From assembly GCF_026210795.1 (NCBI RefSeq), contig NC_089429.1, positions 3,844,001-3,908,000 on the forward strand: a DNA stretch of 64,000 nt. Direction: 5' to 3'. Of this stretch, positions 1 through 46,614 are shown piece by piece (the stretch's first letter is position 1; every line of letters begins with the position of its first letter). The DNA comes from Rhizophagus irregularis (Eukaryota). The notes under the pieces were generated by a model. That model saw only the letters and a program-made list of their open reading frames with translations. It was not told where the DNA came from and ran no database searches. The position numbers and the translations under genes were made by a program.

Positions 1-2283
1 TGTAAAAAGGTTGATAATAAATTTAATCAATAAAGACAGTATATGCAGACGGATTAAAGCTAGTCTAAGCATGTTTAAATCAATTGAGTCAAAGGCCTTA
101 GAAATGTCCTGAGAAACAATCCATAACTCTTGGTCATCGCTTTTATCAAAGCGTCGTTGATGAATAATAGCATCAAGCATCTTAATAGGAATGTCAGTGG
201 AACCACCTGGCAATCCAGCAAAATTACCACCTTGGAGCACTTGGTTGTCAGCTAGGATTTTTGAAAGACGAGTTGTAACGACCTTAACCATACATTTTCG
301 TACAGTTTCCAACAAAGTGATAGGTCACGTATTCTTTAATTGTGCGTCAAATTCATGAGGCTTTGGAATGGGATAAACAAGCGCTTCACGCCAATCAGCA
401 GGAATATCTCCATGAATGAGGCAGGCATTAGCTAAAATAAGGGATAAATTGAAAGCTTCGCCAGTTAAATGTTTGAGCATCTCATAAGAAATTTTTGAAG
501 GACCAGAGGCTTTGTTATTGGGCATAGAATTGAGAATGTTTTTCCATTCATCTTCCAAAATAGGAGACATAACCGAGATATATAACGACGAATCAATATC
601 AGAAAGAGGAGTATATGCTCTTTGCCATCGTGGAGGAAATGAATCCATAGAAGAATACTGGACCAAAGGAGGAGTAACAACCGATTGGAAGTGGTTAATA
701 GCAGCTTGCTTGATATCTGAAGGATCAGTAAGTAAAGTGGGTTTAGAGTCAATAACAACCAAGACTCTATCTAGAATGATAGAACGATGTTCCACTGATA
801 GGGCTGAAGAAATAAAGGAGCCCGGGGACGTAGAGAAATGTTCATCTCTAAGAGCAGTATAATATTCAATGGAATCTACACGATGTTGCTGAAATTGCAT
901 GGAAAGATATGCTGAGACCAAAGTTTTCTGCGAACGCAAAAATTTGATAAAAGCGGGAAGTGGTGTTGTACTATAATTAGGTATAGTATAATCTTTTAAA
1001 AGAGATTTGAGAAGAGATAATTGTGTAGACAAAGAGTTAATCATCTGTGAAATTTGAGCTGGACGACTAGGCCGAGTCGTGGTCAGTTTGAATAATAATC
1101 TATCCAAAAATTTGTTGATAGCAATAAGCATCGTAAGCTCAGGAGGATGTTTATGGTGATGGGTATTGGATACATATTGAAATGGTAGAGAATCAATGGC
1201 ACCACCAAGAATAGAACGTTTAAGAGCGTGCCAAAGTTTGTCCAAAGAAAGAGCTGAAAGTGAAGATATAGAAGGATGATGTGTGGTCAAATACAACTCA
1301 AGACGCGAGTTTACTTCAATAGAAAATTTGTCCCAAGTATCATCTTTCAAATTCTTGTAGAGAAAAATGGTGCGTTGTTCGCTTTTTTGTTTTAATCTAG
1401 CTTTAGCTAGAGTAGCGAAACAGGAGCTAAAATCAAAAGCCGTTATAAGTACACGGTGATCAGTGAATGGATTGTCATTTAATTTAGGACAAGATTCAAC
1501 ATGAGAGAAAAGACCGGGAGCAGGAAAACCAGGGGATGACCAAATATAATCAAGTCTTGAAGAACCATTCTGATGATAAAAGGTAGGACTAGGACCTGAA
1601 AATGAAGAAATATGGGATTGATGATCTGTAAAATATTGAGAGGAGAGTGATCGTAAAACTTTTAAATGATGTTGAGGAAGGTGTGAATGTGAAAGTTCAT
1701 CTGCATTAAAATCACCAAGGATTACTACATGATAATTATTAGAACGGGCTTTATCAAGCCATAAATTAAGTTGTGCAAAAATAGCATCTCGTTTTTTATA
1801 ATGAATAGAGTGATAAAGAGGAATATAAACAGAAATAATAGAAATTTTTGTTTGATGGAAAAAAAGATCCAATTTTAAAAGACGACCTTTCCAAGGATCA
1901 ATCTTCTGAACATGTTTGTGTAAAGGATGGCGCAGTAAAAGACCAACACCATCATGAGGTCGTGAATTAGAAGGGGAAGGTGCCCAATAGGATTTAAAAT
2001 TATAATGGGAATGTTCATTCTGATAAATAAATTTAGCACTGGAAGAAGTAAGACGAGTATCATTTAAAGATAAAACGCCAAAGGAAGAATGCAAAAAATA
2101 ATTTAACAAATGCAATTGTCGAACAGGGGAGCACAAACCATTAACATTGATTTGCCCAAAGTTAATAAGAGGGGAAGAAAGAGAAGGAGAAGAGGGATTA
2201 TTAAAACTATTATTATTAGGTAACGCACTATTAGGGGGGTGAAATCCCTGTGATGCACCCGATATAAATTGGTGTTCAATCAT
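1..2283 (-). pseudogene. LINE-A ORF2 (APE endonuclease + start of reverse transcriptase), premature stop at 325-327
   Basis: APE motifs QINVNGL, GVGLL, ILGDFNA, SRLDYIW, TDHR. RT-region motifs KASGPS and WREALVYPIPKP. TGA replaces CGA in NT[R]PITLLE, and the frame continues (GNFAGLPGGST, SQDISKAFDS) to base 1. Confidence 0.93.
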
Positions 2284-4400
2284 TAGAAGGGGAGGGTTTT
2301 AAGGGAGAGAAGGAGTCCAATTTTTCCATAATCGAACCAAGTTGGGCAGAAAGATTCTTTTGTGTATTAGTAACATTAAAAATTTCTGATTGCAAACGGG
2401 AAGTTGTAACGTCAGGGGTGATATTAATAGGGCGGGAGACAGGTAAGGGGACATGTCGGTTTGATAGGACAGAGCTAGGATCCAAAGCTGAGAAGGAGGC
2501 ATCAGGAGAAACGTCCATAAGAGAAGAGGAAGTGTGGGGAGGAAGATTGAATCCAGAATTCGTGTCTCAGATTGGAGCATCATCCCATCCATTGTCATAA
2601 GAAAGATTGTAATGGTTATGATCATTTGGAGGCGAATGCAATTTAGAGTCGTCAGGGGCATCATAATTCATCATTGATTCCAGCTCAGATAGCCTATACT
2701 CATGAGCCGTGATAGTATCATTCATCCAAGAGACAGTTTCCTCGAGAGTATGGAGGGTGTTAGCGATCTCTTTGATCTGCACCTTTAATTCATCAATAAC
2801 ATGCTGAGGAAGTGTAAGGGCAGGACTGTCAGATGAAGAAGTAGGTGTTGTAGAAACGATAGAATGAGGTCTGTGCGGAGGTTGAGTAGGTCCGGAAGAA
2901 TTATCATTGTTCCTGGAATTATTATTAGTATTGTTGGTCCGGTTGCTATTTCGAGAAGTATTGGGACGAGAAGTGTTAGAATTATTATGGCTGTTATTAG
3001 AGCGAGATGAAAAGGAATTATTATTGCGAGATCGAGAATTGGAACGCAATCTTGAACGGGAATTAGAATTGTCACGTGATTGTCGTGAGTCCTGACGGCC
3101 ACGTCTAGGGCCAGCATTGAAGCGAGAGTAAAGTTTGTTGAGGCGATCGTTCACTTTCCGTGTGGGACGGGGATTGCACTTAGAGGGAGAACAACCAGGA
3201 CGCCCACAAACGTGGCATAAAATTTGTGCTTCATTGGGAGGGTGCCATGTTAGTCCTTTGCCGCGGAAAGCCACGGTCATTTCTTTGGCGGCTTCAAGAG
3301 ATTCAAACGAGGAGAAATTCAAATATACATAGGGTTTAGGCTTGTAAGAACTGACAGACAAGGGGACATTAAGGGCCTTAGCATTGACTTGAGTAGCAAT
3401 TTCTAACAGATCAGCTTCTTTAATATTCTTCGGAATGCCGGCAAGAATAGCAACATGTTCTCTGCAGCTATCGCGTTGGGATTTCGAAAAGGATGCCGGG
3501 CAGATACGTAAAGAATTACCAAGGCAAATAATTGCCCAAATATCATTAAATTGGGTAATTGCATCCGTGGAAGAAAACTGGATATGTCCATTATAGTAAT
3601 GGTTTCTAGGGGTAAGTTTGCACTTGATTACGGTACCATATCAGGAAAATGCCTGACGGACTTGAGTCTCAGTAAGGAAAAGTGGGATGTCGGTAACAAA
3701 TAAAGACTTCGCTTCGTCATTGAGTTTGGCATCTGCAGGAGAATAATGCATAAAGGCTAAATTGAGAAGATCTGCACGTGGGGAGCTGACACAATCGGTA
3801 TAATCATGCTGATCATTAAAGAAGACAAGGATCTTTTTGTTATCTCCTGATCCATCGCAGCGTGCGCGCGGGCACCATATGAGGAATATCGGGAGAGTGA
3901 ACAATCCACTTCCGTCACACATGGAGCGATTGGTGGTAAATTTAGCTTTGAACGCGTCAGGGCACGTCGCGTAGATAAGCCGCAGCATGATAACGAGAGG
4001 GTGCGGATTTGATAGCAGCAGCATTACCATCGGGGGATGGTTGGCGTTCTGGAATATCAAAGGCAACAGCTTTGCCTTTACCATCGGTGTTGGAGGGAGC
4101 ATGGATAGAAGCGTCAACAGTTTCAACAGGAGTAGTAGTAGTATGAGGAGAGGTAATCACTTGGACTTTGTTGACAGGAAGACCAGAAGGAACGGAAGAA
4201 GTAAGGGTGGGAGCAGGAGCAGAGGGCGAAGTTATATCAACATTCATAGTATCATCAGTAACAATACGTGAACGTTTATTAGGCACGCCAGCGGTAGTCG
4301 TGGGAGACAAAGGTCGGTCTCCAGAGGGAGTAGAAGTAATAGGACGCGGTGGCGGCAGAATATCCGGGTTAATAACAGAAGGAGCTGGAGATGAAGACAT
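2276..4400 (-). pseudogene. LINE-A ORF1 (RRM-like domains, CxxC knuckle, R/S/N-rich tract, coiled coil), disrupted
   Basis: ORF pieces 3957-4400, 3641-4126, 2567-3361 and 2276-2518 align to ORF1 of LINE-B (LFVTDIPLF, SYKPKPYVY, GLTWH, LCHVCGRP). Its stop overlaps the ORF2 ATG (AATGATTGA). Confidence 0.88.
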
Positions 4401-4475
4401 AGTAGAGGCTCAGTAAAGAGGAAGGCAACTGAAGAAATATTAGTATTTAGAACGAGCACCATATTTGGTGATTAT

Positions 4476-4561
4476 GAGCAAACAGTCTTATGACTTTATC
4501 TTTTATTATTAAATTTAAACGAAAAGTACAATAAACAAATCGAACAATATTACAAAAATCA
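4476..4561 (-). mobile_element. 86 bp 5'-truncated LINE 3' end with 18 bp target-site duplication
   Basis: The reverse complement (ATTTTTGTAATATTGTTCGAT...AAAAGATAAAGTCATAAGACTGTTTGC) matches the LINE-B terminus 12982-13055. It is flanked by ACCATATTTGGTGATTAT at 4458-4475 and 4562-4579. Confidence 0.9.
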
Positions 4562-4684
4562 ACCATATTTGGTGATTATAAAGAGATGTGACTATATAAA
4601 AAATTTCTTATATTTGTATATCATAATTCCGGCCAAAAATTAACATAATTTAAGCTAGAATTATACTTAAAACTTTATTGTATC

Positions 4685-5213
4685 GTAACTTCGCCAATAT
4701 TAATCGCAGAGAGATGATCTTACTGCCATTCGATTCGTCTTGATGAGACGGTTCTAATGGTATAAAATACGTCGAAATCCAGTCACTAGATTAATTTCCG
4801 AAATTAAAAAAAAAAAAAAATATTAATGGTTTTTGTGTAATAACTCTGCCAATATTTATCCTAGAAAGACGATCTTACTACCGTTCGATTCGTCTTGATG
4901 AGACGAATCTAATGGTATAAGATACATCGAAATCCAATCACTAGATCAATTTCCGAAATTAAAAAATATTAAATGGTTTTTAAGTAATAACTCCGTCAAT
5001 ATTGATCACAAAGAGATAAGCTTACCACCATTCGATTCGTCTCAATGAGGCGATTCCAACGAGCTATAAATCGTCTTTTTACAATTACTAGGTACCGAGA
5101 AATCTAGCAAAATGTTAACTGGCGCAGTAAACGTAAATCAAGAAATATTATAATGACGATGTTTAACATTTTGTTGAATAACTCGTCAGCCAGTGATCGG
5201 AAAAGATTAAAAC
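4685..5213. repeat. ~150 bp tandem repeat with TTCGTCTY-N3-GAGACG palindromic core; the 4th copy is split by the LINE/SINE block
   Basis: CCRTTCGATTCGTCT at 4726, 4881 and 5028. The fourth copy begins ~5175-5213 and resumes at 16163 (TGCCACCATTCGATTTGTCTTAGTGAGACG). Confidence 0.85.
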
Positions 5214-5351
5214 AAAAAGGATAAAACTAACTCTCTCCCGTTCTGCTCACTTGACAATATTTACGAAAAAAATAAAAAATTTTTTCGGAGTTTTTTATTA
5301 CTTTTTCTTTATAATTTCTTTATTTTAGATAACTACTACGACACTTTACAA

Positions 5352-7371
5352 ATGGGTAAAGATAACAAAAAGAAAAATAACCAGTCTAACAAAGATACTA
5401 CATCTAAACGTCCTGCCTCTAGCTCTCCTACTGGCAACGTTTCTGGTCAAGGTTCCTCTATGTCTGGCCCTTCGAACACTCCACCTTCGACCGCCTCTAC
5501 TAATAAACGTACCAGAGTCAGTGCTGATGACTCTGTCATGGATGTTGATAAACCTCTCACGCCTCCTGGCCCTGTTGAGACAACTTCCGCTGAGATACCT
5601 TCTCAACCCGATACCTCCTCTCTCGATGCTTCGCAACACGCCCCTGCTAACAACAACGATAAAGGCAAAAGCCCTGAAATTACTCCCGCAGTCTCCTTCC
5701 CTGAACGTGCTGCCTCTCCGGACGCGTCCCAAGCTGCAGTACAATCTCAACCTACACTTTTCTACGCCGGCCGCTCCTAATGACGTCGATGGCTTTTGGA
5801 ATCACTTCGCTTCGAACCGCGACGCGTGCGACGCGGTTGATCGACAACTTTCCTTATTCTCCTCTTATGGTAGTCGTGCCACGTGTAGTGGATCCAACGA
5901 TTTGAAGAGGATCATCGTCCACTTCCGAAAAAAGGATGATCTTGACACAGCCACAGCTTCCCCTATGGATTCTTTGTTTGGCTTGCATTTCCATGCATAT
6001 GACCCCCAGGCTATTAAAGCAGATGAACACGCGCGTACCCTGGTGGTTACCGACATCCCCCTTTTTATAACTGACGCTCTTTTGCGTGGTACCTTTTCCC
6101 GTTACGGCAATATAGTTCGCTGCCATACCCGTTTATCTAAACTTTATCGTACTGCATACATTACCTTTGAATCTACTGGTGCTTTACAGAACCTCGACTC
6201 TACCTGGGGCGTCCTTTGTGGAGGACATTGTTTGCGAGTTTGCCCCGCTTCTTTCTCTCCTGACCAACGTGCTGAAAGACGCGCTTATGTTGCTTTACTT
6301 GCCGGTCTTCCACGTGGTACTATAGCGGCCGATCTTGCTGAAATTGCCGATGAAATTTCCGCTAAATCTATCAATGTTCCCTTCTCTATGAATTCCTACA
6401 ATCCCAAACCTTACGCCTATTGCCATTTTGCCTCTGAAACGGCTATGGAAAATGCTAAATCTATTTCATGTGCCCTCAAGAAAGTTGGCCTTACCTGGCA
6501 TTCTCCGGACGAAGTCACTTCTCTTTGTCATCGATGTGGTCGCCCTAATTGTAACCCTGATCGATGTGGTTCTTCATCTAGACCTAATCGCCCTCCTCGC
6601 CCTTGGCAATCTAATGATAAATTACGTGCTTTATATAACAAGCATCTACCTCCTTCTCATCCTGCTAAACGACATAACCGTTTTGCCCGCCCTGATAACA
6701 ATAATGATGGACAAAGCCGTACCAATGCTTCTCGCCATCGTTCTAAATCCAGAACTAATAACCGACAACAATCTCGTTCTCGTTCTCAACGCCGACCATG
6801 GAATCGCGATAATCTCAATAATAATAATAATGATCAACGTCGTCGCATTCCTGATGAAAAGGAACTTGATCACTACGCTGATGGCATGGATGTTACATAC
6901 CCTGCTCCTCCTACTGTGCTTACTGATTGGAAATCTATTGGTGCTGCTCTTGAAAAAGTAGTTGAAGAATTAGCCCTTCTTACCACACAATTTGCTACAA
7001 TGAACAGCCGCATCACTAATTTGGAATCTGCTATGGCTGCTCGTGCTCCTATTCCTGGCCCTTTTGTCACTAAACCTCCTTCCTACATCCCTTCCTCTAT
7101 GCAAGGATGGGATGATACAGTAAATCGAAATGATAATAATATCCTCGTTGATGTTAATTCTCCTCCTTTGCAATCAACAAGTGGTTTTTCACCGATTCCT
7201 CATTTTGCTCCCATTCCACCTTCCAACGTCGCTCCTTCCTCCCCTATTGATATGGAACAGCGTCTCTCCTCTCTTTCTGATACTGTTGCCTCTTTGGCTG
7301 GCTCGATTAAAGAAGGAATCCAACAAAACAACCTCATCTTAGCTCGGCAACAAGGCCAAGCTAATCAATAA
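5352..7371 (+). pseudogene. LINE-B ORF1 (RRM-like x2, CHRC knuckle, coiled coil), one frameshift near 5770
   Basis: ORF 5352-5780 (MGKDNKKK) joins 5521-7371 (TLVVTDIPLFITDALLRGTFSRYGNI, AYITF, YAYCHF, LCHRCGRPNC). Confidence 0.88.
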
Positions 7372-7420
7372 TTGTTCTCTTTTTCCCCCTTCTTTATTAC
7401 CGATTTATCAGTGTGTAATA

Positions 7421-10400
7421 ATGATGGACAACAATAAACATAATTTTTCCCCTCACCCCTCTCCCCTTATTAAATTTGGTCAATTAAATGTTAATGGTTT
7501 ATGTTCCCCAGTTCGACAACAACATTTGCTTAATTTTTTTCTCCACTCCTCTTTTGGTGCTTTATCTATTAATGATACGCGTCTTTCCCCTGCAAATGCT
7601 AAATTTATTTTCAAAATGAACACTCCCAACATCACTTTAAGTCCTATTGGGCTTGTTCATCTTCTTCTTCTCGCCCTCATGATGGTGTTGGCATTTTGTT
7701 ACGTAATCCCCTTCATAAACATGTTCAAACGATTGATCCTTGGAACGGTCGACTTCTTAAATTAGACTTGTTCTTTCATCAAACTAAAATTTCTATTATT
7801 TCTATATATTATCCCCCTTCTGGTTCTGTTCATCAATCTATTTGCAATGATCTTATTGCCAAACTTCTTTCTTGGCTCGATTATGCCCGAGCTAATAATT
7901 ATTTTGTAGTTATTCTTGGCGACTTCAATGTTGATGCAATCGCTCATTCTAATTATTCACCTAATCATTTTAAGCTTCTTCGCTTGCTTTCTTCTCGGTT
8001 TTTTACCGATCATCAAGCTCATTCCTCTACAAATGGTCCTGATCCCACTTTCTTTCATGATAATGGATCTTCTAGACTGGATTATATTTGGTCTTCACCT
8101 GGTTTTCCTGCCCCTGGTCTTTTTTCGCAAGTGGTTACTTGCCCGGATCTCTTTGATCGTCCTTTTACAGATCACAAAGTTCTTTCAACTGTTTTTGATT
8201 TCAGTTCTTGCCTGGCTATTTTGGCTAAATCTCGTCTTAAACAAAAACAAGAATTGCGTACTATTTTCTCTTACGCTTCCACTTCAGTTGAACAATGGAA
8301 TAATTTTACCACTGAAGTAGATGATTCTCTTGGAGTTTATTTAGATAGACAATATCACCCCAATTTTGATTTCTCCTCTCTTTCTCTTGATCGTATGTGG
8401 CATGCATTGAAAGCTGCCATAATTAGTGCTGCAATTGAAACCTTACCCTTTCAAAAAGTCTCCAATACACACCGACATTCGTACTCTCCTGAATTAACTA
8501 AACTTATTGCTATTAACAAGTTTTTAGATCGATTTTTATATCGCCTTACTACTCGTCGTTCTAATCGGCCTACTCAGATTGCGCAAATGACTGCCGCTTT
8601 GCCCTCCCATCTTGAAAATCTTGCATCCTTACTTCCTGATTACTCAGTTCCTACTTATTCTACAACCCCTGCATCTGTATTTAAATCGTTTTTACGATCA
8701 CAGAAGACTTTAGTTTCTGCCTTTTTATCTACCAAATTCGCCCAACATCTTACGGACTCAGTGGAATATTATACTGCACTACGTGACGAACACTTTTCGA
8801 ACTCGCTCGGCACCTTTATCGATTCTGCCTTATCAGTAGAAAAACGTTCAATTGTTCTTGACCGTGTTCTGGTCGTTTTGGACTCAACTCCTACTTTATT
8901 AACGGATCCTTCGGATATTAAACATGCGGCTGTTTCTCATTTTCAATCAATTGTTTCTCCTCCGTTGGTCCACTATTCTTCCATCACTTCATTTCCCGCC
9001 CGATGGCAACAAGCTTACACTCCTTTTACAAATGTGTCTGCTTCATTATATGATCCTGTTTTGGCGCCTATTTCCCTACAAGAATGGTCTGATGTGATTT
9101 CCTCCATGCCAAATAACAAAGCTTCCGGCCCTTCAAAAATTTCTTATGAGATGATTAAACATCTGTCCGGTGAAGCCTTGGATTTCTCTCTTTTACTGGC
9201 CAATACCTGCCTTTCTCGCGGTGATATTCCTGCTGACTGGCGTGAAGCTGTGGTTTATCCTATTCCTAAACCTCACGAATTTGATGCTCAACTCAAGAAC
9301 ACTCGACCTATTACTCTTCTGGAAACAGTTCGAAAATGTGTAGTTAAGGTCGTCACGAATCGTCTTTCCAACATCCTTGCTGATAATAAACTTCTTCAAG
9401 GTGGTAATTTTGCTGGTTTACCTGGTGGCTCTACTGATGTCCCTATCAAAATGCTGGATGCGATTATTCATCAACATAAACATGACTCTACTGATGATCA
9501 GGAACTATGGATCGTTTCTCAAGATATCTCTAAAGCTTTTGATTCTATGGATCTAAATATGCTTAAATTAGCTTTAAATAGGTTACATATCCCTGCACTT
9601 TTAGTGCGATTTATTTTAAATCTTTTTACACGACGAAATAATAAGATAATTACTTGTCATGGCGATACAGCTGCTTATAGAGTACGTGTTGGTATCGATC
9701 AAGGAGAAATTATTTCCCCTCTTCTTTGGGTTATTTATTTGGATCCCTTACTCACTGTTTTAAATCAAGAAGCACGAGATCCTTTTATTTTAAAATCTTC
9801 AGCTCTTTTAAATTACTCCCCACTTGAATTTGAACAACATTCTTTACCAATTTCACATTTAACGTTTATGGATGATTCTACACTTATTGCTTCCTCAAAA
9901 TCTGGAATAGAAGACCGTCTTTCTATTACTGCTGAATTTTATACTTTGAATAATGTTCAAGCCAATTCAGCAAAATATGTTCTTCTTTCATCCTCTTCGC
10001 CTTCTTCGGAGATTACTTTTGAATTTTCACCTTCCCTTTTAATTTCCGATATATCTCTTTCCCTTTCTTCTTTACCTCTTAAAACTTCATTTCGTTTTTT
10101 AGGAGTTTGGTTTTCTTTGTCCGCCTCTTCTGATTTTGTTTTGAAACAAGCGCGCTCCATGGTTAAAGATATGGCTGCTCTCTTGGGACCGAAGAAATTA
10201 TTAGCACAACATGTGGCCTATCTCTATAATGCTGTCCTTCTTCCGCGATTGGAATTTCGTCTTCAAACTACCCTTTTCTCTGAAAGTACTATTCAATCAA
10301 TAGTCAAGCCTATGTTTTCAGTACTCCGAAGAAAAGCTGGTCTTGCTGCGACTACCCCGTTGGCCTTATTATTTCTCAAACTTCCATTTTCGCTTTAGAA

Positions 10401-12805
10401 TGCTTTTTATCGATTCCTTTCTTCCCATATCGCATCTTGGCAAAAAATTTTCACTCATCCTGATTTTACAGATTTTGCCCTTTATGCTATTTCCTATCTT
10501 CAAGGATACTTGGGTGCTGAAAGTTGCCCGACTACTATTAACCTAGAACCATGGTCGCATATTGTTTCTTTACGAACGCATACCTTGTTTAATTCGCTTT
10601 TGTTTTCTTCGCGTTTGAACATCACGTGGTCTTTCTCCTTCCGGCCTCCGAGGCGTGATCTACAACCTGCTTTACCACTCCGATCTATTCTACCACATTC
10701 CATTTTTCAAACAAGTTGGAAACTTTGGAAAAACTTGAATATATTTGTGCTTGCTCAATTGGTTTCTCCTTGTGGACGTTATCTTATGAATTGGCCTGAC
10801 CTTCGTTATCTCGGCATCGTTGGTCGTAAAGGACGGATTCCTAATTGGTTTACTTTTATTAATAATAATTTTCTTTTTTCTTCCTCTTCTACTTTACTTT
10901 TATCTTCATATTTTATTAATTCTTCTTTTACTTTAGCTTCTCCTTGTTTATTAGATCATACTGTTAAAGATTATTCTTTTTATCCTCAATGGGCTATTAA
11001 TCTTGACTCTGCTACTCAAACTTTATCTGTTGGTCGTGTGTGTATCACTTATAAGAAACAAAACTCGGCTATTATGTCTCATTGGCTTCCTGTTTCTACT
11101 GTGGCTGATGAACGATCCTATAACCCTTGTCCTGGTTGTGCGGTTAACATTCCTGCCTTATCCAAGAAATCTGCCATTAAACAGCGCTGTAACAGCGAAA
11201 AGTGTTTTTTCAATGTTACCCTATCAGAAACTGTGGGCTACCCTACCAGAAATGCCAAAGTTTTCGCGGCTTATCTTCCCATTACTCTATCTACTTCATG
11301 GAGTTATGCGACTTCCTTGGCTCTTGTTCATTTTTCAAACGCTTCTCCCGCTCTTTCTCCTCTCTTTATGGATAGAATCGATAGAATTGAAGATACTATT
11401 TTACCACTTTCGGTGCAATCTTTGTACACAGATGGTTCGTTCCATCCTGCCAATGATTCTTCGCCTTCTTCCATGACTTCTGCTTGGATTGCTCTTGATG
11501 ATGATGGACTTGTTCTGGAATCTTCTTCCGCATCTCCCTTCTTACTTTCCTTCCGCTTTGCGCTCTGAAATTTCTGCTGTCCTATTAGGATTGAATGCTC
11601 TTTTCCGTGATTCGTCAATCTCTATTTATACTGATTGTAGTCAGTTAATTTCACTATGGACACGGTTTGTTGATGCTCCTTTCTCACCGAAGTTGCTCCG
11701 AGAACCTAATCATCTTCTTTGGCTTTCTATTCGACAACTTATCATGGATCGTAATCTTAATGTCGAATTGATTAAAGTCCCTGCTCATGACGATGATATC
11801 TACAATATACAAGCGGATTCTTTGGCAAAAGATGCTCATTCGTCTTTAAAACCCACTACTCTACTTTCAACATTTTGTTATGCTCCATGCGTGTTGACTT
11901 TTAACTCCTTGCCAATCGACGTGAATATTCGACATTTTCTCCGCTCTATTGCTGATGCTCGTGCTCTTTTATCTTTCTGTTCACTTGCGCGTTTTACTGC
12001 TCTTGGTGCTCCTTCACTTTTTGATTGGGCTGGTATATATTTTTGCCTTTCACAAATTAAAGGTTTTGCTTCACATAGGAATGGTCGTCCTGAATTTTGG
12101 ATCTTCCGCATTAAACTTCTTCTGGATATGTTGCCTACCTTAACTACTCTTCAACAACGTAAACCTTACTTATATTCTCCTGACTGGCTCTGTCCGCAGT
12201 GTAATTCTGCTCCTGAAGATTTGAATCATCTTTGGACTTGTCCTTATATTTTACCGGAATTAAATCCCTGTTTAACGCACCGGTCTGAAGTCATTAAATT
12301 TAGAGATTCTTGTTTATCTTCTTTCCTTTCCTTGAAATCTTTGGATAATTCCTTTCATACCAATTTTTTTGCTTTGGATTGCTGGAACTATGAAGCTCCT
12401 TCTTCATCTTGTCTTTGGCTTACTCGAGGATTGTTGCCTGCGCATTTAACGGCATTTTTGAATCAATACTTTCCTCTCTCTGTTATATACAAGACTATTT
12501 CTCCCCTTCTTAATGACTTTCAAGTCGAATTATATGGTGAAATTTGGCTGTGTCGGAATGTTCTTTTCCATGCTTGGGAGGAGTCGCAGGGTATCTCGGC
12601 TGCTTCCAAATTACGTGGCCCATCTACAAATTCTTTCCCTAATACTACTTCTCCACAACAACACAACTCTTCTTTGGCGTCAGTTTCTCAGGATTCCTGG
12701 ATTTCTTGGATATCCTCTTCTATAATTTGGGGTGGATCTTGGATCTCGCACTTGGATTTTCTGCGCCGCTTAACAGTTCAACCTCTTAGGATCTCTTTCT
12801 GGTAA
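7421..12805 (+). pseudogene. LINE-B ORF2: APE endonuclease, RT, RNase H, CCHC finger; frameshifts ~7612 and ~11530, stop at 10396-10398
   Basis: APE: GDFN, RLDYIW, TDHK. RT: DISKAFD, QGEIISPLLW, FMDD, FRFLGVW. RNase H: YTDGS, RSEISA, YTDC, KVPAH..NIQADSLAK. Zinc finger: CPQC..EDLNHLWTC. Confidence 0.95.
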
Positions 12806-13073
12806 CGGACTGGATTTTTGGATGTTGGATAGTTGACTCACACTGGCCTTCGGGTAAAGTTGGGGTATGCGATTCTGTAATAGTTCAGTTTTTCTTTGCT
12901 TTAATTTTATTTTAGTTTAGATTTCTTTACTTGTATGAGTCGTGAAGCTACTCTTTTTATTTTTTATTAGTTTATTTTCTTATTTTTGTAATATTGTTCG
13001 ATCATTTTTCGAAGTTCAAAATATAAATAAAAGATAAAGTCGTAAGACTGTTTGCACAGGAAAAGATTAAAAC

Positions 13074-14046
13074 AAGGGTTGGTCACCTATCTCGGTGGTT
13101 AGTCACTGAGACCCTCATTAAGCCTGAGTATGGTGAGGTCGCAGGTTCGATTCCCATGACCACGGAAATAAAAAAGAATTTTACTGCGGACGCTACAACC
13201 AATAGCGTGAAGGTACAGGGGATTAGTGTAGTTGGACTGCATCATGGTGAATTAGTGTGTACGGTTAGGCCGCACATTTCAACTAAGGGTCGTGGTGTCC
13301 TTCTAACGTTCCCTATGAGGCCATTGGTATGTGCGCAGTCCTGTCCTTGAGGTCACTACTATACCTTGGGGGGACTTCCTGTCTGGGTGGTCAGCTCCAC
13401 GATACCACTTGGGGTCAGTAATGGCTAGATGGTCGTCCTAGATGGTAAAGCTGAGGGTGCAATGTCTTAGTGGTAGTTTGACCTTCTGTTAGGTCTTAGA
13501 CCAACCAAAGTGTTCGTGCACAGTGGTTATGGGGTTCGATTCCCCACTTCTTGGGTCCTGGTTGGTGATCCCTGGTGGTTGATACCCACCATAAGGAGTG
13601 ATCCTGGACAGAAGCCTGCTACTTCCTGTGCTAGGTGGTCGGCTACAAAGTATACCACTTGGGGTAAACAACTGTACTATCGGTGCTAGGTAATCGCGGG
13701 CTGTAGTGGCCTTTGAGTGAGGCTTAGTACCTAAAATGGTGGTATGGAAGGGTACTAGATGGTTGATGTTACCTGTCGAAAGTCCTCCATGAAAGTAGAT
13801 GCTCTCTAAAGGTCGTTAAATAAATTGAGTATCAGTATCATGCAATGGGTATAGGATGAGTAGGCGGCGTGTACCTAGCTTCAGATCAGCCTATAATGGC
13901 CCGATGGGGGATGTCTTCTATAGTGGTGCTGTTACCTGAGGAATTAAGTACTCGGTATAATGGTTGCCCATTGAAGATGATAGGACACAGACCCGAGATT
14001 AGTCTCATAAGAGGCAATGGGTGGTCTGGCCGTAAACATTAGCAAA
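13074..14046 (+). mobile_element. tRNA-derived SINE-like unit 1 (~970 bp, non-coding)
   Basis: 5' tRNA-like head with A box (TATCTCGGTGGTTAG) and B box (GGTTCGATTCC). GC-rich body, no T5 run, no credible ORF. 3' end GCCGTAAACATTAGCAAA. Flanked by the shared 15 bp repeat. Confidence 0.8.
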
Positions 14047-14061
14047 GGAAAAGATTAAAAC

Positions 14062-15044
14062 TAGGGTTGGTCACTCTATCTCGGTGGTTAGTCACTGAGA
14101 CCCTCATTAAGCCTGAGTATGATGAGGTCGCAGGTTCGATTCCCATGACTACGGAAATAAAAAGAATTTTACTGCGGACGCTACAACCAATAGCGTGAAG
14201 GTACAGGTATTAGTGTAATTGGACTGCATCATGGTGAATTAGTGTGTACGGTTAGGCCGCACATTTCAACTAAGGGTCATGGTGTCCTTCTAACGTTCCC
14301 TATGAGGCCATTGGCATGTGCGCAGTCTTGTCCTTGAGGTCACTACTATACCTTGGGGGGACTTCCTGTCTGGGTGGCCACTCCACGATACCACTTGGGG
14401 TCAGTAATGGCTAGATGGTCGTCCTAGATGGTAAAGCTGAGGGTGCAATGTCTTAGTGGTAGTTAGACCTTCTGTTAGGTCTTAGGCCAACCAAGGTGTT
14501 CGTGCGACAGAACAGGTAGCATGGTTATGGGGTTCGATTCCCCACTTCTTGGGTCCCGTTGGTGATCCCATCCCTGGTGGTTGATACCCACCATAAGGGG
14601 TGATCCTGGACAGAAGCCTGCTACTTCCTGTCCGAGTGGTCACTACATAAGTATACCACTTGGGGTAAACAACTGTACTATCGGTGCTAGGTAATCACGG
14701 GCTGTAGTGGCCTTTGAGTGAGACCTAGTACCTAAAATGGTGGTATGGAAGGGTACTAGATGGTTGATGTTACCTGTCGAAAGTCCTCCATGAAAGTAGG
14801 TGCTCTCTAAAGGTCGTAAAATAAATTGAGTACCAGTATCATGCAATGGATTAAGGATGAGTAGGCGGCGTGTGCACACTTCGATCAGCCTAAAATGGCT
14901 CGATGGGGGATGTCTTCTACATGGTGCTGTTACCTGAGGAATTAAGTACTCGGTTTAATGGTTGCCTATTGAAGATGATAGGACACAGACCCGAGATTAG
15001 TCTCATAAGAGGCAATGGGTGGTCTGGCCGTAAACAATAGCAAA
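14062..15044 (+). mobile_element. tRNA-derived SINE-like unit 2
   Basis: Colinear with unit 1, with many substitutions and small indels. Flanked by repeat copies 14047-14061 and 15045-15059. Confidence 0.8.
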
Positions 15045-15059
15045 GAAAAAGATTAAAAC

Positions 15060-16147
15060 TACCGGGGTTGGTCACCCTATCTCGGTGGTTAGTCACTGAG
15101 ACCCTCATTAAGCCTGAGTATGGTGAGGTCGCAGGTTCGATTCCCATGACCACGGAAATAAAAAGAATTTTACTGCAGACGCTACAACCAATAGCGTGAA
15201 GGTACAGGGATTAGTGTAGTTGGATTGCATCATGGTGAATTAGTGTGTACGGTTAGGCCGCACATTTCAACTAAGGGTCATGGTGTCCTTCTAACGTTCC
15301 CTATGATGCCATTGGTATGTGCGCAGTCCTGTCCTTGAGGCCGCCTACTATACCTTGGTGATTTCCCGTCTGCGCTGGCTACTCTACGATACTACCTCCC
15401 CCGGCCAGTACCTATTGACGGTCGGTCTCACTGCAGTGTTCGAGCCGCAACGTCTTAATGGTAGCCTTGGGGGGACTTCCTGTCCAGGTGGTCACTCTCG
15501 AAATACCACTTGGGGTCAGTAATGGCTAGATGGTCGTCCTAGATGGTAAAGCTGAGGGTGCAATGTCTTAGTAGTTTGACCTTCTGTTAGGTCTTACGAC
15601 CAAAGTGGTTCGTACAACAGAACAGTTAAACATGGCTATAGTTAACGCCTCTTAGGTCCCGAGTTGGCGATCCCTGGCGGGTTGATACCCACCATAAGGG
15701 GTGATCCTGGACAGATGCCTGCTACTTCCTGTCTGAGTGGTCACTACAAAGTATACCACTTGGGGTAAATAACTGTACTATCGGTACTGGGTAATCGCGG
15801 GCTGTAGTGGCCTTTGAGTGAGACTTAGTACCTAAAATGGTGGTATGGAAGGGTACTAGATGGTTGATGTTACCTGTCGAAAGTCCTCCATGAAAGTAGA
15901 TGCTCTCTAAAGGTCGTAAAATAAATTGAGTATCAGTATCATGCAATGGGTATAGGATGAGTAGGCGGCGTGTACCTAGCTTCAGATCAGCTTAAAATGG
16001 CCCGATGGGGGATGTCTTCTATAGTGGTGCTGTTACCTGAGGAATTAAGTACTCAGTTTAATGGTTGCCCATTGAAGATGATAAGACACAGACCCGAGAT
16101 TAGTCTCATAAGAGGCAATGGGTGGTCTGGCCGTAAACACTTGCAAA
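15060..16147 (+). mobile_element. tRNA-derived SINE-like unit 3 (~1090 bp variant)
   Basis: Colinear with units 1 and 2, but has an extra 112 bp module (15359-15470) and lacks the second B-box hairpin. Followed by the repeat copy 16148-16162. Confidence 0.8.
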
Positions 16148-16261
16148 GGAAAAGATTAAAACTGCCACCATTCGATTTGTCTTAGTGAGACGATTCTAAC
16201 AAGCTATGATACATCTTTGTACGATTATTAGATGCCAAGTTATTTAATATATTCTTTATAT

Positions 16262-16443
16262 AACTGTGATTATAAACAGTTCTTTTTAATATAAGATTTT
16301 TAAGGATAGGTGTGATAGTGACTATAGATAGATTGTGACTATATAGGATAGATTTTAATAATAAAGTGTTTTGAACATTCAACTGGTGTGACTATATAGT
16401 AGAATGTGACTATAACGGGAGTGACTATAGAGGGAGTTGACTG
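16262..16443. mobile_element. Right terminus of a Tc1/mariner (pogo-like) non-autonomous host element
   Basis: Ends TATAGAGGGAGTTGACTG followed by TA (reverse complement TA-CAGTCAACTCCCTCTATA). Multiple subterminal GTGACTATA motifs, also seen at 4572-4596. The left end is presumably outside the window. Confidence 0.6.
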
Positions 16444-17239
16444 TAGCCCGGTTGGTGTCAGATTTTGGCGGAAATCGGATGCCAATCGGGCAGCCCGATT
16501 GCCCTATAAAAAATATGTATACAGTTTTTATACTGTATATACGTATTTTTGATATAGTTTGCATTTTTACATACGGCATATCAGTATATATAATGTATAC
16601 TGTTCGCAAAATGTGTTTAGTAAAAAATACAATAAAGTATACGGTAAACATACTGTGTGATACGGTATATTAAATTCATACGCCTATAACGTATATCATT
16701 TCTACTGTATATCAGTATTTTGTATACAGTTCACAAAAATATTGTAAATAAAGGATACGGTATACGTATTATTCTACAGTATATTAAAATTCATACGTTT
16801 ATAACGTATTTTCTACAGATATACACAGGTCAAATAAATAAAAATCAGATTTTTGCCCTTTTTAATATGGCTATCTGATTTTTTTGGCAATTTTAATATA
16901 ATATTTCCGATTTTAATAAATATTTCTGATTTTAATATAATATTTCTGATTTTTAACATGAAATTGCCGATTTTTGGTTATTTGTAATAGGATTTTTCGA
17001 TTTTAATATATAACATGTGATTATGTATTACGGTTTAATATTTATTTATTAACTTAGATTTTTTTTTTTATTTTAGTTATAATTATTTTTTTGCCTTAAA
17101 AACTTTACTAAAATACTTTTTAAATACTTTATAAAATAGAATTAAAATACTTTTTTTCTTAAATATAAATACATTTAAATTAAATAACTCATAATTTAAA
17201 ATATAAACAAATATTATATTTTTTTTACATATATTTCAA

Positions 17240-18470
17240 AGTATGGTTTGAGCATTTTGGCTGAAGTAAATCTTATTCTTTTAATTAAAAGTAGTTTAGT
17301 AAGTTTAAAACTGTTAAGATCATATAAGTACAGTTAATATTTTTGGAATTATTTACATTTTTTATATTATACAGTAGTATTAAGTTACAAATTTTTTTAC
17401 CTTCAGAGCGTATTTTGAGATCTTTAGCCAAAGTAAATCAACTTCTTATATTAATTGTAAGTTGTTCGGCAGGTTAAAATCTACTTGGATATTAATTTTC
17501 ACGAAGGTACAGTTAATACTTGATGAGTTATTTACAATTTTCACAACAGTACTCATTCATGAATTTTATTTTTTTCATTTTGTCACTTCAGAGCGTATTT
17601 TGAGCACTTTATCCAAAGTAAACCAACTTCTTATATTAATTGAATGTTGTTTAGCATGTCAAAATCTACTTGAATATTAATTTTCACGAAGGTAAAGTTA
17701 ATACTTGATGAGTTATTCACGATTTTCACAATGGTACTCATTTACGAATTTTATTTTTTCCGTTTTGTCACTTCAGAGCGTATTTTGAGCACTTTAGTCA
17801 ATGTAAATCGACTACTTTTATTAATTGAAAGTTGTTTAGCATGTCAAAATCTACTTGAATATTAATTTTCACGAAGGTACAGTTAATACTTGATGAGTTA
17901 TTCACGATTTTCACAATAGTACTCATTTACGAATTTTATTTTTTTCTGTTTTGTCACTTCAGAGCGTATTTTGAGCACTTTAGTCAAAGTAAATCGACTT
18001 CTTTTATTAATTGAAAGTTGTTTAGCATGTCAAAATCTACTTGAATATTAATTTTCACGAAGGTACAGTTAATACTTGATGAGTTATTCACGATTTTCAC
18101 AATAGTACTCATTTACGAATTTTATTTTTTTCCGTTTTGTCACTTCAGAGCGTATTTTGAGCACTTTAGTCAAAGTAAATCGACTTCTTTTATTAATTGA
18201 AAGTTGTTCAGCAGGTCAAAATCTACTTGGATATTAATTTTTACGAAGGTACAGTTAATACATGATGAGTTATTCACGATTTTCACAACGGTACTCATTT
18301 ACGAATTTTATTTTTTCCATTTTGTTACTTCAGAGCATATTTTAAGCACTTTAGCCAAAGTAAATTGACTTCTTTTATTAATTAAAAATTGTTCAGCAGC
18401 TTAGAATCTACTTGAATATTTATTTTAATAAAGGCACAGTTAATATTTGTGGAGTTATTAATTTTTTATA
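17240..18470. repeat. 185-186 bp tandem repeat, ~6.5 copies
   Basis: CTTCAGAGCRTATTTT at 17401, 17586, 17771, 17957, 18143 and 18328. Confidence 0.95.
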
Positions 18471-18964
18471 ATTGTGCGTATTACATTAAATTACAAGTAA
18501 ATTTATATTCTTAATGTATTTTGTTTAAAATTTAATTATTTAAGATTAGTTTTTTATTTAATATTGCTTAATAAAATATTTTTTAAATTTTAATTCAATA
18601 TTACAATATAATTTTTTATAAAAATATATATTTCATAATGTATATACAATTTTTTTGTATAGTGAAAAAACTGAAAAATGTGGTTAAGAATTGGTAATAC
18701 AGCTGTAAAAAGTCATAAATCAGACAAATATAGCTAAAATCAGCCAATTTTTATTTATTTGACGTGTGATAGAGTAAGTTTTTCTACACTTTAAAGCATC
18801 AAACAATACTAGTATCTGCTAAAATGTACTATCCAAAAACTCACTGATGTAAAATCACAATTATTAAAAAATTCACAAGAATTTTTGTTAATACTGTTTA
18901 ATTTTTAAGTTCAAAGTCTGATTGATAATACTAAATTCAAAACTCAATTATAAATCATTTTTAT

Positions 18965-19400
18965 AAATTATAATTTAAAAATTAAGCAGTATTAAGGAAA
19001 ATTCTCATGAATTTTTCTTAATACTACTTAATTCTAATTTAACTAATTTAGTATTAAGGTTTTAATTTAAAAATTAAGCAGTATCAAGAAAAATTCTTGC
19101 AAATTTTTCTTAATACTGCTTAATTCTAATTTAACTAATTTAGTATTAAGGTTTTAATTTAAAAATTAAGCAGTATCAAGAAAAATTCTTGCAAATTTTT
19201 CTTAATACTGCTTAATTCTAATTTAACTAATTTAGTATTAAGGTTTTAATTTAAAAATTAAGCAGTATTAAGGAAAATTCTTGCGAATTTTTCTTAATAC
19301 TGCTTAATTCTAATTTAACTAATTTAGTATTAAGGCTTTAATTTAAAAATTAAGCAGTATCAAGGAAAATTCTTGCGAATTTTCTTAATACTGCTTATAT
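18965..19400. repeat. 92 bp tandem repeat with an internal hairpin, ~5 copies; further copies at 20500-20706 and 28149-28210
   Basis: AATTTAAAAATTAAGCAGTA at 18972, 19064, 19156, 19248 and 19340. Each unit has the inverted repeat AATTAAGCAGTA...TACTGCTTAATT. Confidence 0.95.
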
Positions 19401-31627: not shown

Positions 31628-32387
31628 TAGGGATGGTTAGGTCGATCCTGGTCCGGTCCTGGTCCTAGGACCTATAAGTCCTATTGAACGGACCTGCGGA
31701 CCAGGTCCTGTTAGGACCAGTCCTGGACCTCCTGGTCCTGACTAAGTTATTTATAGATTTTATGAATTTTAGTAATAATTAAATATAAAAAAAGTGAGTT
31801 GCGATATCGGGATTCACTTTTTTATATTGATTTTATATAAAAAAAGTGAGTTGCGGTATCGGGATTCACTTTTTTATATTGATTTTATATAAAAAAAGTG
31901 AGTTGCGGTATCGGGATTCACTTTTTTATATTGATTTTATATAAAAAAAAGTGAGTTGCGGTATCGGGATTCACTTTTTTATATTGATTTTATATAAAAA
32001 AAGTGAGTTGCGGTATCGCGATTCACTTTTTTATATTGATTTTATATAAAAAAAGTGAGTTGCGGTATCACGATTCACTTTTTTATATTGATTTTAATAT
32101 AAAAATGTGAATCGCAATATCGCAACTCATTTTTTATATGATTTTAATAATATAAAAATTGTATTGCAATATTGCAGTGCACTTTTTTATGATTTATAAT
32201 TACTTAAAATCAAATTTACAGCAAATTATACATATATAATTTAAACATATAGATCTCTTATAACCTTATTGGCTAGGACTTTTTAGGACCTGGTCTGCTT
32301 CTGGTTCAAAATTTGGACCTAAAGATCTGCAGACCAGGTCCTAGAACCAGGTCTTTAGGTCCAGAACCTAGGACTTTACCATCCCTA
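31628..32387. mobile_element. hAT-like MITE with an internal array of ~53 bp hairpin repeats
   Basis: TIR TAGGGATGGT / ACCATCCCTA, TSD TCCCCGTT/TTCCTGTT, GGACC/GGTCC subterminal motifs. About 8 copies of ATATAAAAAAAGTGAGTTGCGGTATCGGGATTCACTTTTTTATAT at 31783-32195. Confidence 0.85.
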
Positions 32388-40650: not shown

Positions 40651-42850
40651 TCACATATTATTATTATTATTATTATTAAACATTTCACCTACTCCAACTA
40701 AATTGCCGTTTCTTTTCAAAAAAATTAAAGCTTCAAATAAATCCGCCTTCATACTTGTCCTTTTTGAGGACATTATCAATCCAGCATCGCTAAAGACCCT
40801 TTCGCTTGCCCCAATGTTGCTTAGATAGATAAATACTTTCGTGCCAATTGTGCTAAGACTGGAAATTGACTCTTATTTACGTCCCACCATTTTAAAGGAT
40901 CTTGATCATTTTTGATTTGTGCCATTACTAAATATCGTTCAACTTCATTATCTTCAGTCTGAAGATCATGAGATTCATCATCTGAGAACAAGCTTCTTTT
41001 ATAAACTCGTGTTGAAGTTTTTCTTTTTTTTGGTTTTGGCTCACATTCCTCTAGTTGAATATTAGTATTCTTTGCTAATTCATAAATTTCGTGGAGATTA
41101 GCTTTTGCTAATACCTTTTGTTCATTGTTTGCAAATGCTGTTTTTTTTTTACGTGGATCCAAAAGTGCTGCAATAAGTGCTTCCTTTTCAATTACCTCAA
41201 AATAATTTTCAAGTGCCTTATAAAGATTTGATTTAATACCATCCAAAAGCCCGAAGGTATTAGTAGGAGTATTTATTTTGATTTTTCGTCTGGCATCGGG
41301 TTCATCATCTTCATCAACTTCTTCAAATTGATGATTTTCAAACGCATTATCATTTGTTTCCAAATCTAAATTAGAGTTTATTGTTAGACTAAACATAGTT
41401 TTGAGTTTAATGATACCTGGATATATGTAACTCATTGTAGCATATTTCGTCCCTTCCAATCTTTCTGTTAACTCAGCAAAGGGACCCAAAATTTCAAGCA
41501 AATCTCTTATAATTTCCCATTCATCATTAGTAAGGTTAACTTTATTTAACCTTTTCGCGTCCTCTTTAGCATTATTGTCTTTGCATGCATTTAATGATGA
41601 AATAACAATATCAATATAAGGTTTTAAAGTAATTAACCTTTCCCATGCTATATATGTACTTGACCAACGTGTTTCAACATCGGTTATTGCCCTATAAAAA
41701 ATTCCATGTAAATCACTCCCTTCTTCAACATTGTCTGAAATTTTTTTTTGCGCATTTAAAAGACGCTCATTTTGCTTTGGTGAAGTAAAAAAATTAATTA
41801 ATCTTTTTGCACGTGCAATTAGAATTTCAGCAGTAAGTAATCCCTTCCCAACTACCAATTGGATTGTGTGTGCAGTGCATGATAATCTATGTAACCAAAC
41901 TATTTGATTAAGACACTTTTTCATGTTAGATGCGTTATCTGTAGTACAAAAAAAACCTTATTTTGCAATTCCCATTGAGTAATAATTTTCTCTAACGCAT
42001 GTTGAATAGCTTCTCCGGTATGTGGATAGGGCATATATTGAATAGCTAAAGTAATTTCTCTCATTTCAAAATCGGGTGTAATAAAGTGACATGTAACTCC
42101 AAGAAAGCCCTGCTTACTACGTGAAGTCCAAAGGTCACAAGTAAGTGAAACTAAAGCTGCATTTTCATGGATATACTGCTTAAGCTTATTTTTTGAAAAT
42201 TCATACGCTTCAAATATTATTTTTCGAAATTCTTTATCACTTGGAAGTTCAAAATTTTCACTTAAAGCATTAATAAATTGACGAAAAAAAGGAGATTTTA
42301 AAAGATAAAGAGGTTGAAAATCCAGAATGAGCCATTCAAAAAGAAGAGTTTCCAAATATTTTTGCCGATCTGGTGTCATTTGTGGATGTGAATCTGATGA
42401 AATAGTATAACGATCAATTTTTACTTGTTTTAAAGATGGTGTAATAGTTGCTGAAGGTTTAGAATGTTCATAAATTTTGTGTTTTCGATTAAGGTGGCTA
42501 ATAATATTACCAGTAGGACTGGAAGTTTCAATTTTTGAAGTACAGTTTTCACCGTTATCTAATTTTTGATTACATTCAAAAATAAATTTATTTGGATTTG
42601 ATGGATGATTTTTTCGCTCACCCCAATTATATACCCAACTGCGAAATTTTGATCCTCCTTTATTTTTAGCTTGAAAATCTAAATCATGTTCTTCTTTATT
42701 AAGAAGTTTATCAAACGCATTTTTTGTATATTCTTCTATATTAGTATTATCTAAAGGTGATGTTACGGGCGTATGATTTTCTATATCAATTATATCAATA
42801 TAGTTATCTTCAGATTGTACATGTGTTTCTAAAGTTCTTTCAGTTGACAT
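40651..42850 (-). pseudogene. hAT transposase (BED finger, DDE, C-terminal dimerisation domain), frameshifted
   Basis: C..C..HLNRKH BED finger, SLTCDLWTS, TTDNA at the ~41950 frameshift, CTAHTIQL, DVETRWSST, LLDPR, PLKWW..FPVLAQLARKYLSI, then SERVFS after a stop and frameshift at ~40821. Confidence 0.95.
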
Positions 42851-43577
42851 ATTTAGATTAAACTTTAAAATATTCTTTGTTCTATAAATTCTTTGAATAA
42901 AAAAAAAAACGTTTTTTTAAAAGTAGTACAAAATACCAAATATTTATATACAATTGCCAATTTGTGTATGACTATCAAATCAGTCAATCAGATTATATAT
43001 ATTAATCATTTTTCAGGATAATCTGGATAATCTGGATAATCTATAGAATTATTCATTCATAATTTCTTAAATCCGAATATCCGTATAAAATTAACCGGAT
43101 ATAAATTTGGATAATAGGATAATCCGGATAAATCCTAGGATTTTATCCGTTCAAGGAAAGCTCTACATATCTTACACATATCGGGTACCCGATTTTCAGC
43201 ATTAATACTACACATATCGGGTACATATCTGATACATATCTGCTATCCGATATATTGGTTTTTGACTAGTGATTCCACATTAGGGAAGGTCAATCTGCAT
43301 ATCAGCTTTAATGATGGTGAAAAACATAAAAGCACACCCAGTGAATTCATAGTTGTTGGACCAGATTGGCCGGGACCTGATTTAATTTTAGGAGGGCCTT
43401 AGTTTCGAGAAAATGGTACAACTTTGAATATATGTAATTCAAAACTATTATTAGACGATAATTTGCGATTCCATTCAAAGTATGAACCCATGCAGAATAA
43501 CGATTATCCGAAGTAGTGATCATCAATATGCGTAATTTTATTTTTTTGTTTAAAGATACAACATATAATACAGACTA

Positions 43578-45289: not shown

Positions 45290-45615
45290 TATTTAGCCAG
45301 AGGCGCTTCGCATGACGCATTTAACCATCTTTTATTTACCAGAAGTACTAGAACATATTTTACATTTCTTATTGATAGATAAATCCATCTACCCCGCTCT
45401 ATATGTTTCCCGATTGTGGTACAGATGCGGTGCCCTATTATATGAAGACGCATTGAGCTAAAGGAAAACGATCCCAAAGCAAAGAAATTCATAGAATTAG
45501 TATGTGGGAAGCAAAAGCCAATTTATAGCTTGAAACTAACCCATCTCCATACTATAATCCACTTTCAAGTAAGAAAATTGAAGGTATCGTAAGAACATGC
45601 CCAAACATAATTCAT

Positions 45616-46614
45616 TTGAATTTCGAAAATTGTGTGGGTTTTAGTAATAGAGCATTAAATCAGCTTAAAGCATACCCCAATCTGAGATATCTTAATTTAT
45701 GTAGTAGTGGTATTATGGGTGATAAAGCTTTATGTGGAATGGTGGGATCATGTCATAAAATAGAATATCTAAATATTTCTTTCTGTCAAGGTATTACTGA
45801 TAGATCTTTAATCAAAATTGCGGACAGTTGCCAAGCTTTACAAGAGTTTCATTTTGCTTGTGCGCATTTGATTTCTGAAAGATTTATAAGTCACATCTTA
45901 AACTCATGCCCAAATTTACGAAGATTCAGTATTCCGGGTAGCTGTCGAAGAAAAAATAGATGTGATATATTAGTAGAAAAACTTCTTACTGTAGAGAAAC
46001 ACCTTAATGTAGAGAAACATCTTAGTGTAGAGTATCTTGATTTTGGTAGGTGTGTTTACGTCACCGAGACTTCAATTTGCAATGCCATTCATTCCTGTCC
46101 AAATCTCCAACATCTCAACCTTAGTTTTTGTGGAATTACTGATAAAACTATCGAAAAAATTGCTAGATCATGTTATATTTTAAAATATCTTAATTTAAGG
46201 GGGTGTTATAAAATTAGCAAAAGAGCTATAAATAAGCTAAATCCAAATATCCACATAGAGAATTTCGAGGAAACTTTATCACCTCCCGATCTCATTGGAG
46301 CAGTTAGAAATCATCTTATAGAGAACAATGTTTCTAATAGACAAATTTTAGCTCAGGGTTATCAGCGCCTCTTAGATTTAAGTATGCGAGATAATTTGCA
46401 GTGGTATTCCAATCCAGGGTTGGCTAGATCAACAGTCCAGAATGGTGGTCGGTTATATAACACCCGGTATAGTATTGCTAATAATCAAAATTCAGTTCTA
46501 TCTCAGATACACCGGCAACCTAACAGACGGTCACCAAGGAATTATTTTGATAGAATACTAGCTGATCAAGCAGAATGCTGGTACTCTACTGATCTAACTA
46601 ATCTGGAGCAGTGA
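45616..46614 (+). CDS. Leucine-rich repeat (RNI-like, F-box/LRR type) protein, 5' part degraded
   Basis: Repeats such as [26 protein letters not shown] and [27 protein letters not shown]. The true start is upstream and frameshifted. Confidence 0.82.

Follow-up and report, generated by a model that had tools for sequence, protein, structure and literature searches.

This locus raises the question of how one long interspersed nuclear element (LINE) and three ~1-kb units resembling short interspersed nuclear elements (SINEs) came to lie head to tail at a single site, with the same 15-bp sequence (here called R) at every boundary. The array is contained in a 64,000-nt stretch of Rhizophagus irregularis DNA (the window; assembly GCF_026210795.1, contig NC_089429.1, 3,844,001–3,908,000, forward strand), to which all positions refer. 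It probably arose by four separate insertions of a sequence-specific LINE and its SINE-like partner at one 15-bp site, each via target-primed reverse transcription (TPRT), and repeated nicking at one position, as proposed in a first-pass annotation of the window, is the best reading. Established TPRT chemistry would place the first (bottom-strand) nick at R's left edge, with the second (top-strand) nick following 15–19 nt downstream; each insertion would duplicate R, leaving a usable target.

The order R-LINE-R-unit-R-unit-R-unit-R given in that annotation was recovered, as were its five copies of R (Table 1; R4 with one mismatch) and the bases to the right of each: AA, AA, TA, TACC and TGCC, from the upstream to the downstream copy. 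At up to two mismatches, R has six matches in the window against 0.81 expected, a number reached in none of 100 shuffles; the sixth match (54373, two mismatches) is away from the array.

All five local copies carry the same rare two-base variant of R. Sequences outside the window were drawn from Logan contigs of four of 24 runs (three of DNA, each from a separate study, and one of RNA, compared over 12990–16420; summed contig depth is not copy number) and from 246 annotated proteins of other R. irregularis assemblies (P numbers below), 27 of which translate a unit tail through R. In the DNA runs, R2 has G at 13066 in 95.4–96.7% and A at 13067 in 96.9–98.6% of summed depth, and 16164 is A in 97.6–100%, demonstrating that R-type junctions are widespread and the window's variant rare. 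The outside variant is present in all 27 proteins (as KRIK, KKRIK or EKDK) and the window's KRLK in none. As the local variant occurs in five R copies here and at none of these 27 outside junctions, the copies here were templated by this locus, and copying from the local target favors separate insertions over one jump across R-carrying RNAs.

The same 27 proteins indicate what lies beyond R at other loci: a full unit head in 15 (15 members of a 16-member cluster comprising at least 21 accessions, from one assembly and many contigs), the 5′ end of the LINE family found here (LINE A) in three, a truncated LINE in five (two sharing one junction), a truncated unit in two, and the host hairpin and the protein end in one each. 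This tally excludes proteins that depart from the tail ahead of R, among them P0222 and P0232, which both reach the window's host flank, probably via a predicted splice. Contig joints tie R to internal unit positions (e.g. 13071 to 13857, 13073 to 14831), the pattern that stacks containing 5′-truncated units elsewhere would give. Together, the translated junctions show stacking to be common in R. irregularis, at a frequency not derivable from gene models, and adjacent accession numbers found within one contig suggest mixed arrays of greater length.

The claim that R is host target DNA duplicated at insertion is supported, and sequence comparison indicates more specifically that this 15-bp site, conserved and part of a hairpin repeat of high copy number, is used at many loci by LINE A and the unit, and is not a random locus-specific duplication. 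Deleting 5214–16162 had been said to rebuild an intact host repeat; this holds for the register and length of the flanks, which when joined are identical, without gaps, at 46–55 of 80 positions to five paralogs of the repeat in the window, but not for the R span itself. Within that span the local paralogs match 4–6 of 15 bases, or 8 of 15 for the consensus-like copy at the LINE head. The target is this hairpin repeat and not 28S ribosomal DNA (rDNA), Rfam giving no match to any ribozyme or RNA family over 4400–17000, and the summed depth of the flank beyond R5 exceeds that of the units (X1–X3). At 44176–45145, a cluster of five cores of the hairpin repeat, alternating in orientation, has neither R nor inserts.

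Units 1–3 have pairwise identities of 95.1, 94.6 and 92.4% over ungapped columns, in addition to module differences. The earlier view that they are not simple local tandem copies is borne out by their belonging to different subtypes: each of the three head junctions and two of the three tail types were found at other loci, where the same tail types carry the common R variant (P0073, P0218–P0221), and the extra module of unit 3 (~15353–15464) is seen in the three DNA runs, where its depth is below that of the remaining unit sequence. Occurrence of the tail types and the unit 3 module elsewhere implies that the units are different family members. These data bear directly on the best of the alternatives, namely that one unit was inserted and the unit-plus-R block then amplified locally by unequal crossing over, with gene conversion bringing in modules of dispersed copies and the LINE arriving separately. 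Such amplification would likewise give every junction the local variant of R, and the units do show mosaic similarity; transposable element (TE) dimers expanding by unequal exchange have been described (10.1101/158386). It is nevertheless improbable, given three different head junctions and three tail types that mostly recur at other loci, and divergence of 5–8% between units, against ~0.4% per non-synonymous site for private changes of the LINE. Expansion by crossover also predicts a hybrid middle unit, while the mosaic-looking one is unit 1, nearer to unit 2 in its middle and to unit 3 in its 3′ part.

More improbable still is a single event, with the reverse transcriptase (RT) either switching from one RNA template to another or copying a single read-through transcript made from a donor array. 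L1 ORF2p template jumping yields concatemers in vitro (PMC10830420), and the units lack a T5 run on the + strand, making read-through possible, a lack that is not significant (p about 0.3). In that case, however, internal copies of R should show the donor variant seen in 27/27 proteins and >95% of depth, when all are local here, and the RT must have re-copied the target overhang three times. The least likely explanation, that R is the elements' own 3′ terminus, common to LINE A and the unit and only resembled by the target, would account for R following every outside unit tail read through the junction (27/27) and for its poor match to local paralogs, but is highly improbable, as R is also present upstream of the array in host context, filling the exact length of the host repeat, and different subtypes would all need the rare variant when the same tail types elsewhere have the common one. 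A hybrid version of this explanation may also be envisaged, in which read-through RNA carrying R anneals to the target and the local R is retained.

Given serial insertion, addition at the upstream end is somewhat favored: new copies would enter the upstream copy of R, in the order unit 3, unit 2, unit 1, LINE. The proposal that nested right edges of R record this order was not upheld, TA, AA and TACC junctions recurring elsewhere (P0233–P0242, P0223, P0243); because the consensus target continues with TACC, both TA and TACC are derivable from downstream host sequence in either polarity. Extension lengths (4, 2, 0, 0) decrease upstream, as in one of 12 orderings, which is weak support for upstream order. 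Private changes also drop upstream, from 38 in unit 3 to 31 in unit 2 and 11 in unit 1 (of ~950 columns); the LINE has 22 in 2440 codons, a measure unlike that of unit columns. R1 reportedly adds copies at this end too (PMC2718515), which likewise gives weak support.

LINE A has two open reading frames (ORFs). ORF1 (ATG at 5352, to 7371; one frameshift near 5780) encodes an RRM domain (Pfam), and ORF2 (about 7421–12805) apurinic/apyrimidinic endonuclease (APE), RT and RNase H domains (Pfam Exo_endo_phos, RVT_1, RNase_H), interrupted by frameshifts near 7610 and 11530 and a stop at 10396. Homologs are R. irregularis proteins, up to 95% identical; zf-RVT was not reported in the four that were scanned. 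The top solved-structure match of the RT is human L1 ORF2p, followed by that of the R2 element. Overlooked in the first-pass annotation, the first 14 bases of LINE A are an extra R-like copy, in the outside variant, and short R fragments are also found at LINE 5′ ends in P0219, P0221 and P0231. The variant of this tag points to a separate donor locus, from which it likely came along with LINE A. A metagenome scan with the LINE protein returned a single weak hit, at a locus that looks unrelated (L001, E 9e-6) and was not used.

For the unit, 'SINE-like' is the right strength of label. Scored against the A- and B-box consensus, unit 1 has an A-box-like motif at 13088 (two mismatches), an exact B-box at 13144 and a second B-box at 13533, the last found in two of the three units and missing from unit 3. 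ARAGORN gives a tRNA-like fold in units 1 and 3 at relaxed thresholds only and no tRNA in the units at default settings. Unit 1 is structured (folding z −4.0, 20 shuffles), and the longest stop-free frames of the units (107–108 aa) are consistent with non-coding sequence. Summed depth of the unit is very high in the three DNA runs; in the poly(A) RNA run, 176 of 11.05 million reads were placed, 126 of them partially, with no pile-up at start or end. The tail pattern is absent from the viral contigs, metagenome contigs and prokaryote genomes scanned. BLAST gave no match of at least 40 bases between the LINE body and unit bodies, and we infer mobilization of the unit by LINE A from their common target alone, not from a shared tail. 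A hairpin near the 3′ end of the unit (13996–14018) resembles the host repeat core (5033–5053; shuffle p 0.001–0.008 in three of six comparisons) and could be captured target sequence, or chance. P0168, P0224–P0227 and P0229 represent a unit variant with another 3′ tail, two of them running on into more unit sequence, and a second SINE-like subfamily with a different tail may therefore also stack.

Several observations weigh against serial insertion by this LINE and its partner. The comparison draws on run contigs and gene models, and no contig from the runs spans the whole array. Outside junctions are read from translations of gene models, where splicing may intervene and short ORFs at host junctions may be under-called. 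Within the R span, local paralogs match at only 4–6 of 15 bases, and the mismatch in R4 resembles a single-G junction with the same tail type in P0073, so that the left edge may shift by 1–2 bases. The TA, AA and TACC extensions that recur elsewhere may arrive with donor RNA, and the gradient of decay mixes unlike measures, many 'private' unit changes being family modules. The last 30 bases of LINE A and of the units are not significantly alike (shuffle p 0.37–0.81). As for the assembly, an artefact is unlikely, since the units are 5–8% divergent and the rare local letters make up a few per cent of depth in the DNA runs.

A second stack, missed in the first-pass annotation, lies ~620 bp from the R array in the opposite orientation. 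Here two copies of an 18-bp sequence (R′) flank an 86-bp LINE stub, and immediately next comes a minus-strand LINE from another family (LINE B), whose ORF2 is ~70% nucleotide-identical to that of LINE A. The stub matches family B protein tails at 81%, and R′ follows a family B tail at one outside locus (P0018, with neighboring model P0178); LINE B seems to have its own conserved junction, as judged from two loci only. The last 30 bases of the unit tail and of the stub were not significantly alike (shuffle p 0.45–0.98). In the annotated proteins P0001 and P0025, two LINEs of family B are joined in head-to-tail order, one with a unit tail in front. Just outside the ends of the hairpin cluster (4572–4596 and 16266–16430) are all six copies in the 64 kb of one 9-mer and both copies of a related one; confinement of these 9-mers to the cluster edges suggests one composite high-copy host element containing both target sites.

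Taken as a whole, a broader scenario can be drawn, although it is rather unlikely in full. It would consist of a genome-wide Rhizophagus system in which two LINE families, related to each other, and SINE-like partners of kilobase length each home on a fixed site of their own in the hairpin repeat and assemble strictly polarized mixed arrays, with read-through transcripts containing R annealing to the cut target and biasing insertion to existing stacks. The order of the arrays would record bursts of retrotransposition in a fungus that has long been asexual, and the LINE would serve, in this fungus, as a site-specific integrase for RNA cargo of kilobase size without a LINE-like tail.

The array is a case of a known mechanism, more general than the first-pass annotation recognized. 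R1 tandems in Drosophila rDNA have a TSD (target site duplication) of 14 bp between copies, and new insertions are inferred to go into the TSD that adjoins the resident's 5′ end (Stage and Eickbush 2009, PMC2718515). Like LINE A, R1 is a sequence-specific two-ORF APE/RT element without long terminal repeats (non-LTR), found in TSD-separated tandem copies, with a fixed bottom-strand and a variable top-strand cut, as proposed here, and with some transcripts carrying target sequence 5′ (ISR), as in the LINE A tag (PMC2718515). Unlike for R1, the elements here target a hairpin repeat that is dispersed and non-genic, the stacks are mixed LINE/SINE-like and the host is a fungus. The trypanosome pairs ingi/RIME, L1Tc/NARTc and Tvingi/TvSIDER1 are often in tandem with only a TSD between them, ascribed to independent insertions (PMC3820030; for the trypanosome RHS hot spot see PMC7563717). 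As in ingi/RIME, autonomous and non-autonomous elements are parted only by the TSD; however, ingi/RIME have a fixed 12-bp TSD and share a 5′ signature of 76–79 bp, whereas the TSD here is 15–19 bp and strongly conserved, and LINE and unit have no detectable common sequence. The array is neither R1, which has another target, nor an ingi-type pair.

Double insertion was generalized for Drosophila TE dimers by McGurk and Barbash (10.1101/158386). As here, these keep the TSD at the tandem junction and have an intact 3′ end meeting a full or 5′-truncated neighbor, but they are mostly of one family at varied sites, rather than longer mixed arrays sharing one conserved target. Utopia tandems in U2 genes (PMC4640811) are also non-LTR arrays, but with a restriction-like endonuclease, LINE A being of APE type with RNase H, and Cnl1 of Cryptococcus (10.1101/2021.08.11.455996) forms fungal non-LTR arrays, but subtelomeric ones. 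The unit resembles the tRNA-derived Mg-SINE and SINE2-1_BG (table in PMC3747384) in its putative tRNA-like head, A/B-like boxes, lack of a long ORF, high copy number and TSD, and differs in its ~1-kb length, modularity, lack of a significant LINE-like tail and seemingly fixed target. Grem-LINE1 of Mucoromycotina has an L1-clade RT and zf-RVT and is pericentric (10.1101/706580). The comparison with CRISPR spacer acquisition made in the first-pass annotation has no support and adds nothing: such an array would have a leader, a dedicated integrase and foreign inserts serving as guides, whereas both kinds of insert here come from resident families that are abundant, and no integrase family was detected among 12 scanned window ORFs; the polarized mechanism has already been proposed for R1.

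In the open literature, no sequence-specific LINE/SINE pair or TSD-spaced stacks were found described for arbuscular mycorrhizal (AM) fungi. In the excerpts of PMC11075540 and PMC8647823, on Rhizophagus TEs, 'target site' is absent, and the TE library of the former may already hold these families as consensus sequences; those of PMC11343200, PMC12857005 and PMC13465315 contain nothing on such loci. If confirmed, the LINE/SINE pair would account for one type of spurious gene model annotated in this model AM fungus, the stacks would be strain markers, possibly time-ordered, and LINE A would be an APE-type element of a fungus, specific for 15 bp and moving a 1-kb RNA.

Table 1 Features of the R array and of its immediate surroundings (positions in the window).
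Feature	Position	Strand	Evidence
LINE family B, starting just past R′ and leaving the window	1..4457	-	ORFs, domains
Second stack: R′ (4562–4579), 86-bp LINE family B 3′ stub (4476–4561), R′ (4458–4475)	4458..4579	-	
Diverged tandem host hairpin repeats and left half of the targeted copy	4675..5198	+	Repeat comparison, folding
R1, upstream target copy, host context on left	5199..5213	+	Motif matches, flank register
LINE family A, full length	5214..13058	+	ORFs, domain matches, R. irregularis homologs
R-like tag, LINE 5′ end	5214..5227	+	Genome-wide R variant, not the local one
R2, boundary of LINE tail and unit 1, then AA	13059..13073	+	Motif match
Unit 1, SINE-like, 973 nt	13074..14046	+	Alignment, boxes, folding
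R3 and TA	14047..14063	+	Motif match
Unit 2, SINE-like, another subtype	14064..15044	+	Alignment; tail type also in P0073
R4 (one mismatch) and TACC	15045..15063	+	Motif match
Unit 3, SINE-like, with extra ~112-nt module	15064..16147	+	Alignment, boxes
R5, downstream target copy	16148..16162	+	Motif match
Downstream part of the hairpin repeat targeted in the host, with a neighboring repeat of very high copy number	16163..16420	+	Depth, paralogs; same continuation in P0220

Elsewhere in the window are AT-rich tandem repeat arrays (17232–18523, 18968–19397 and 31767–32190), a hAT transposase remnant (40821–42916, minus strand) and an ORF for a leucine-rich repeat (LRR) protein (45529–46614, plus strand).

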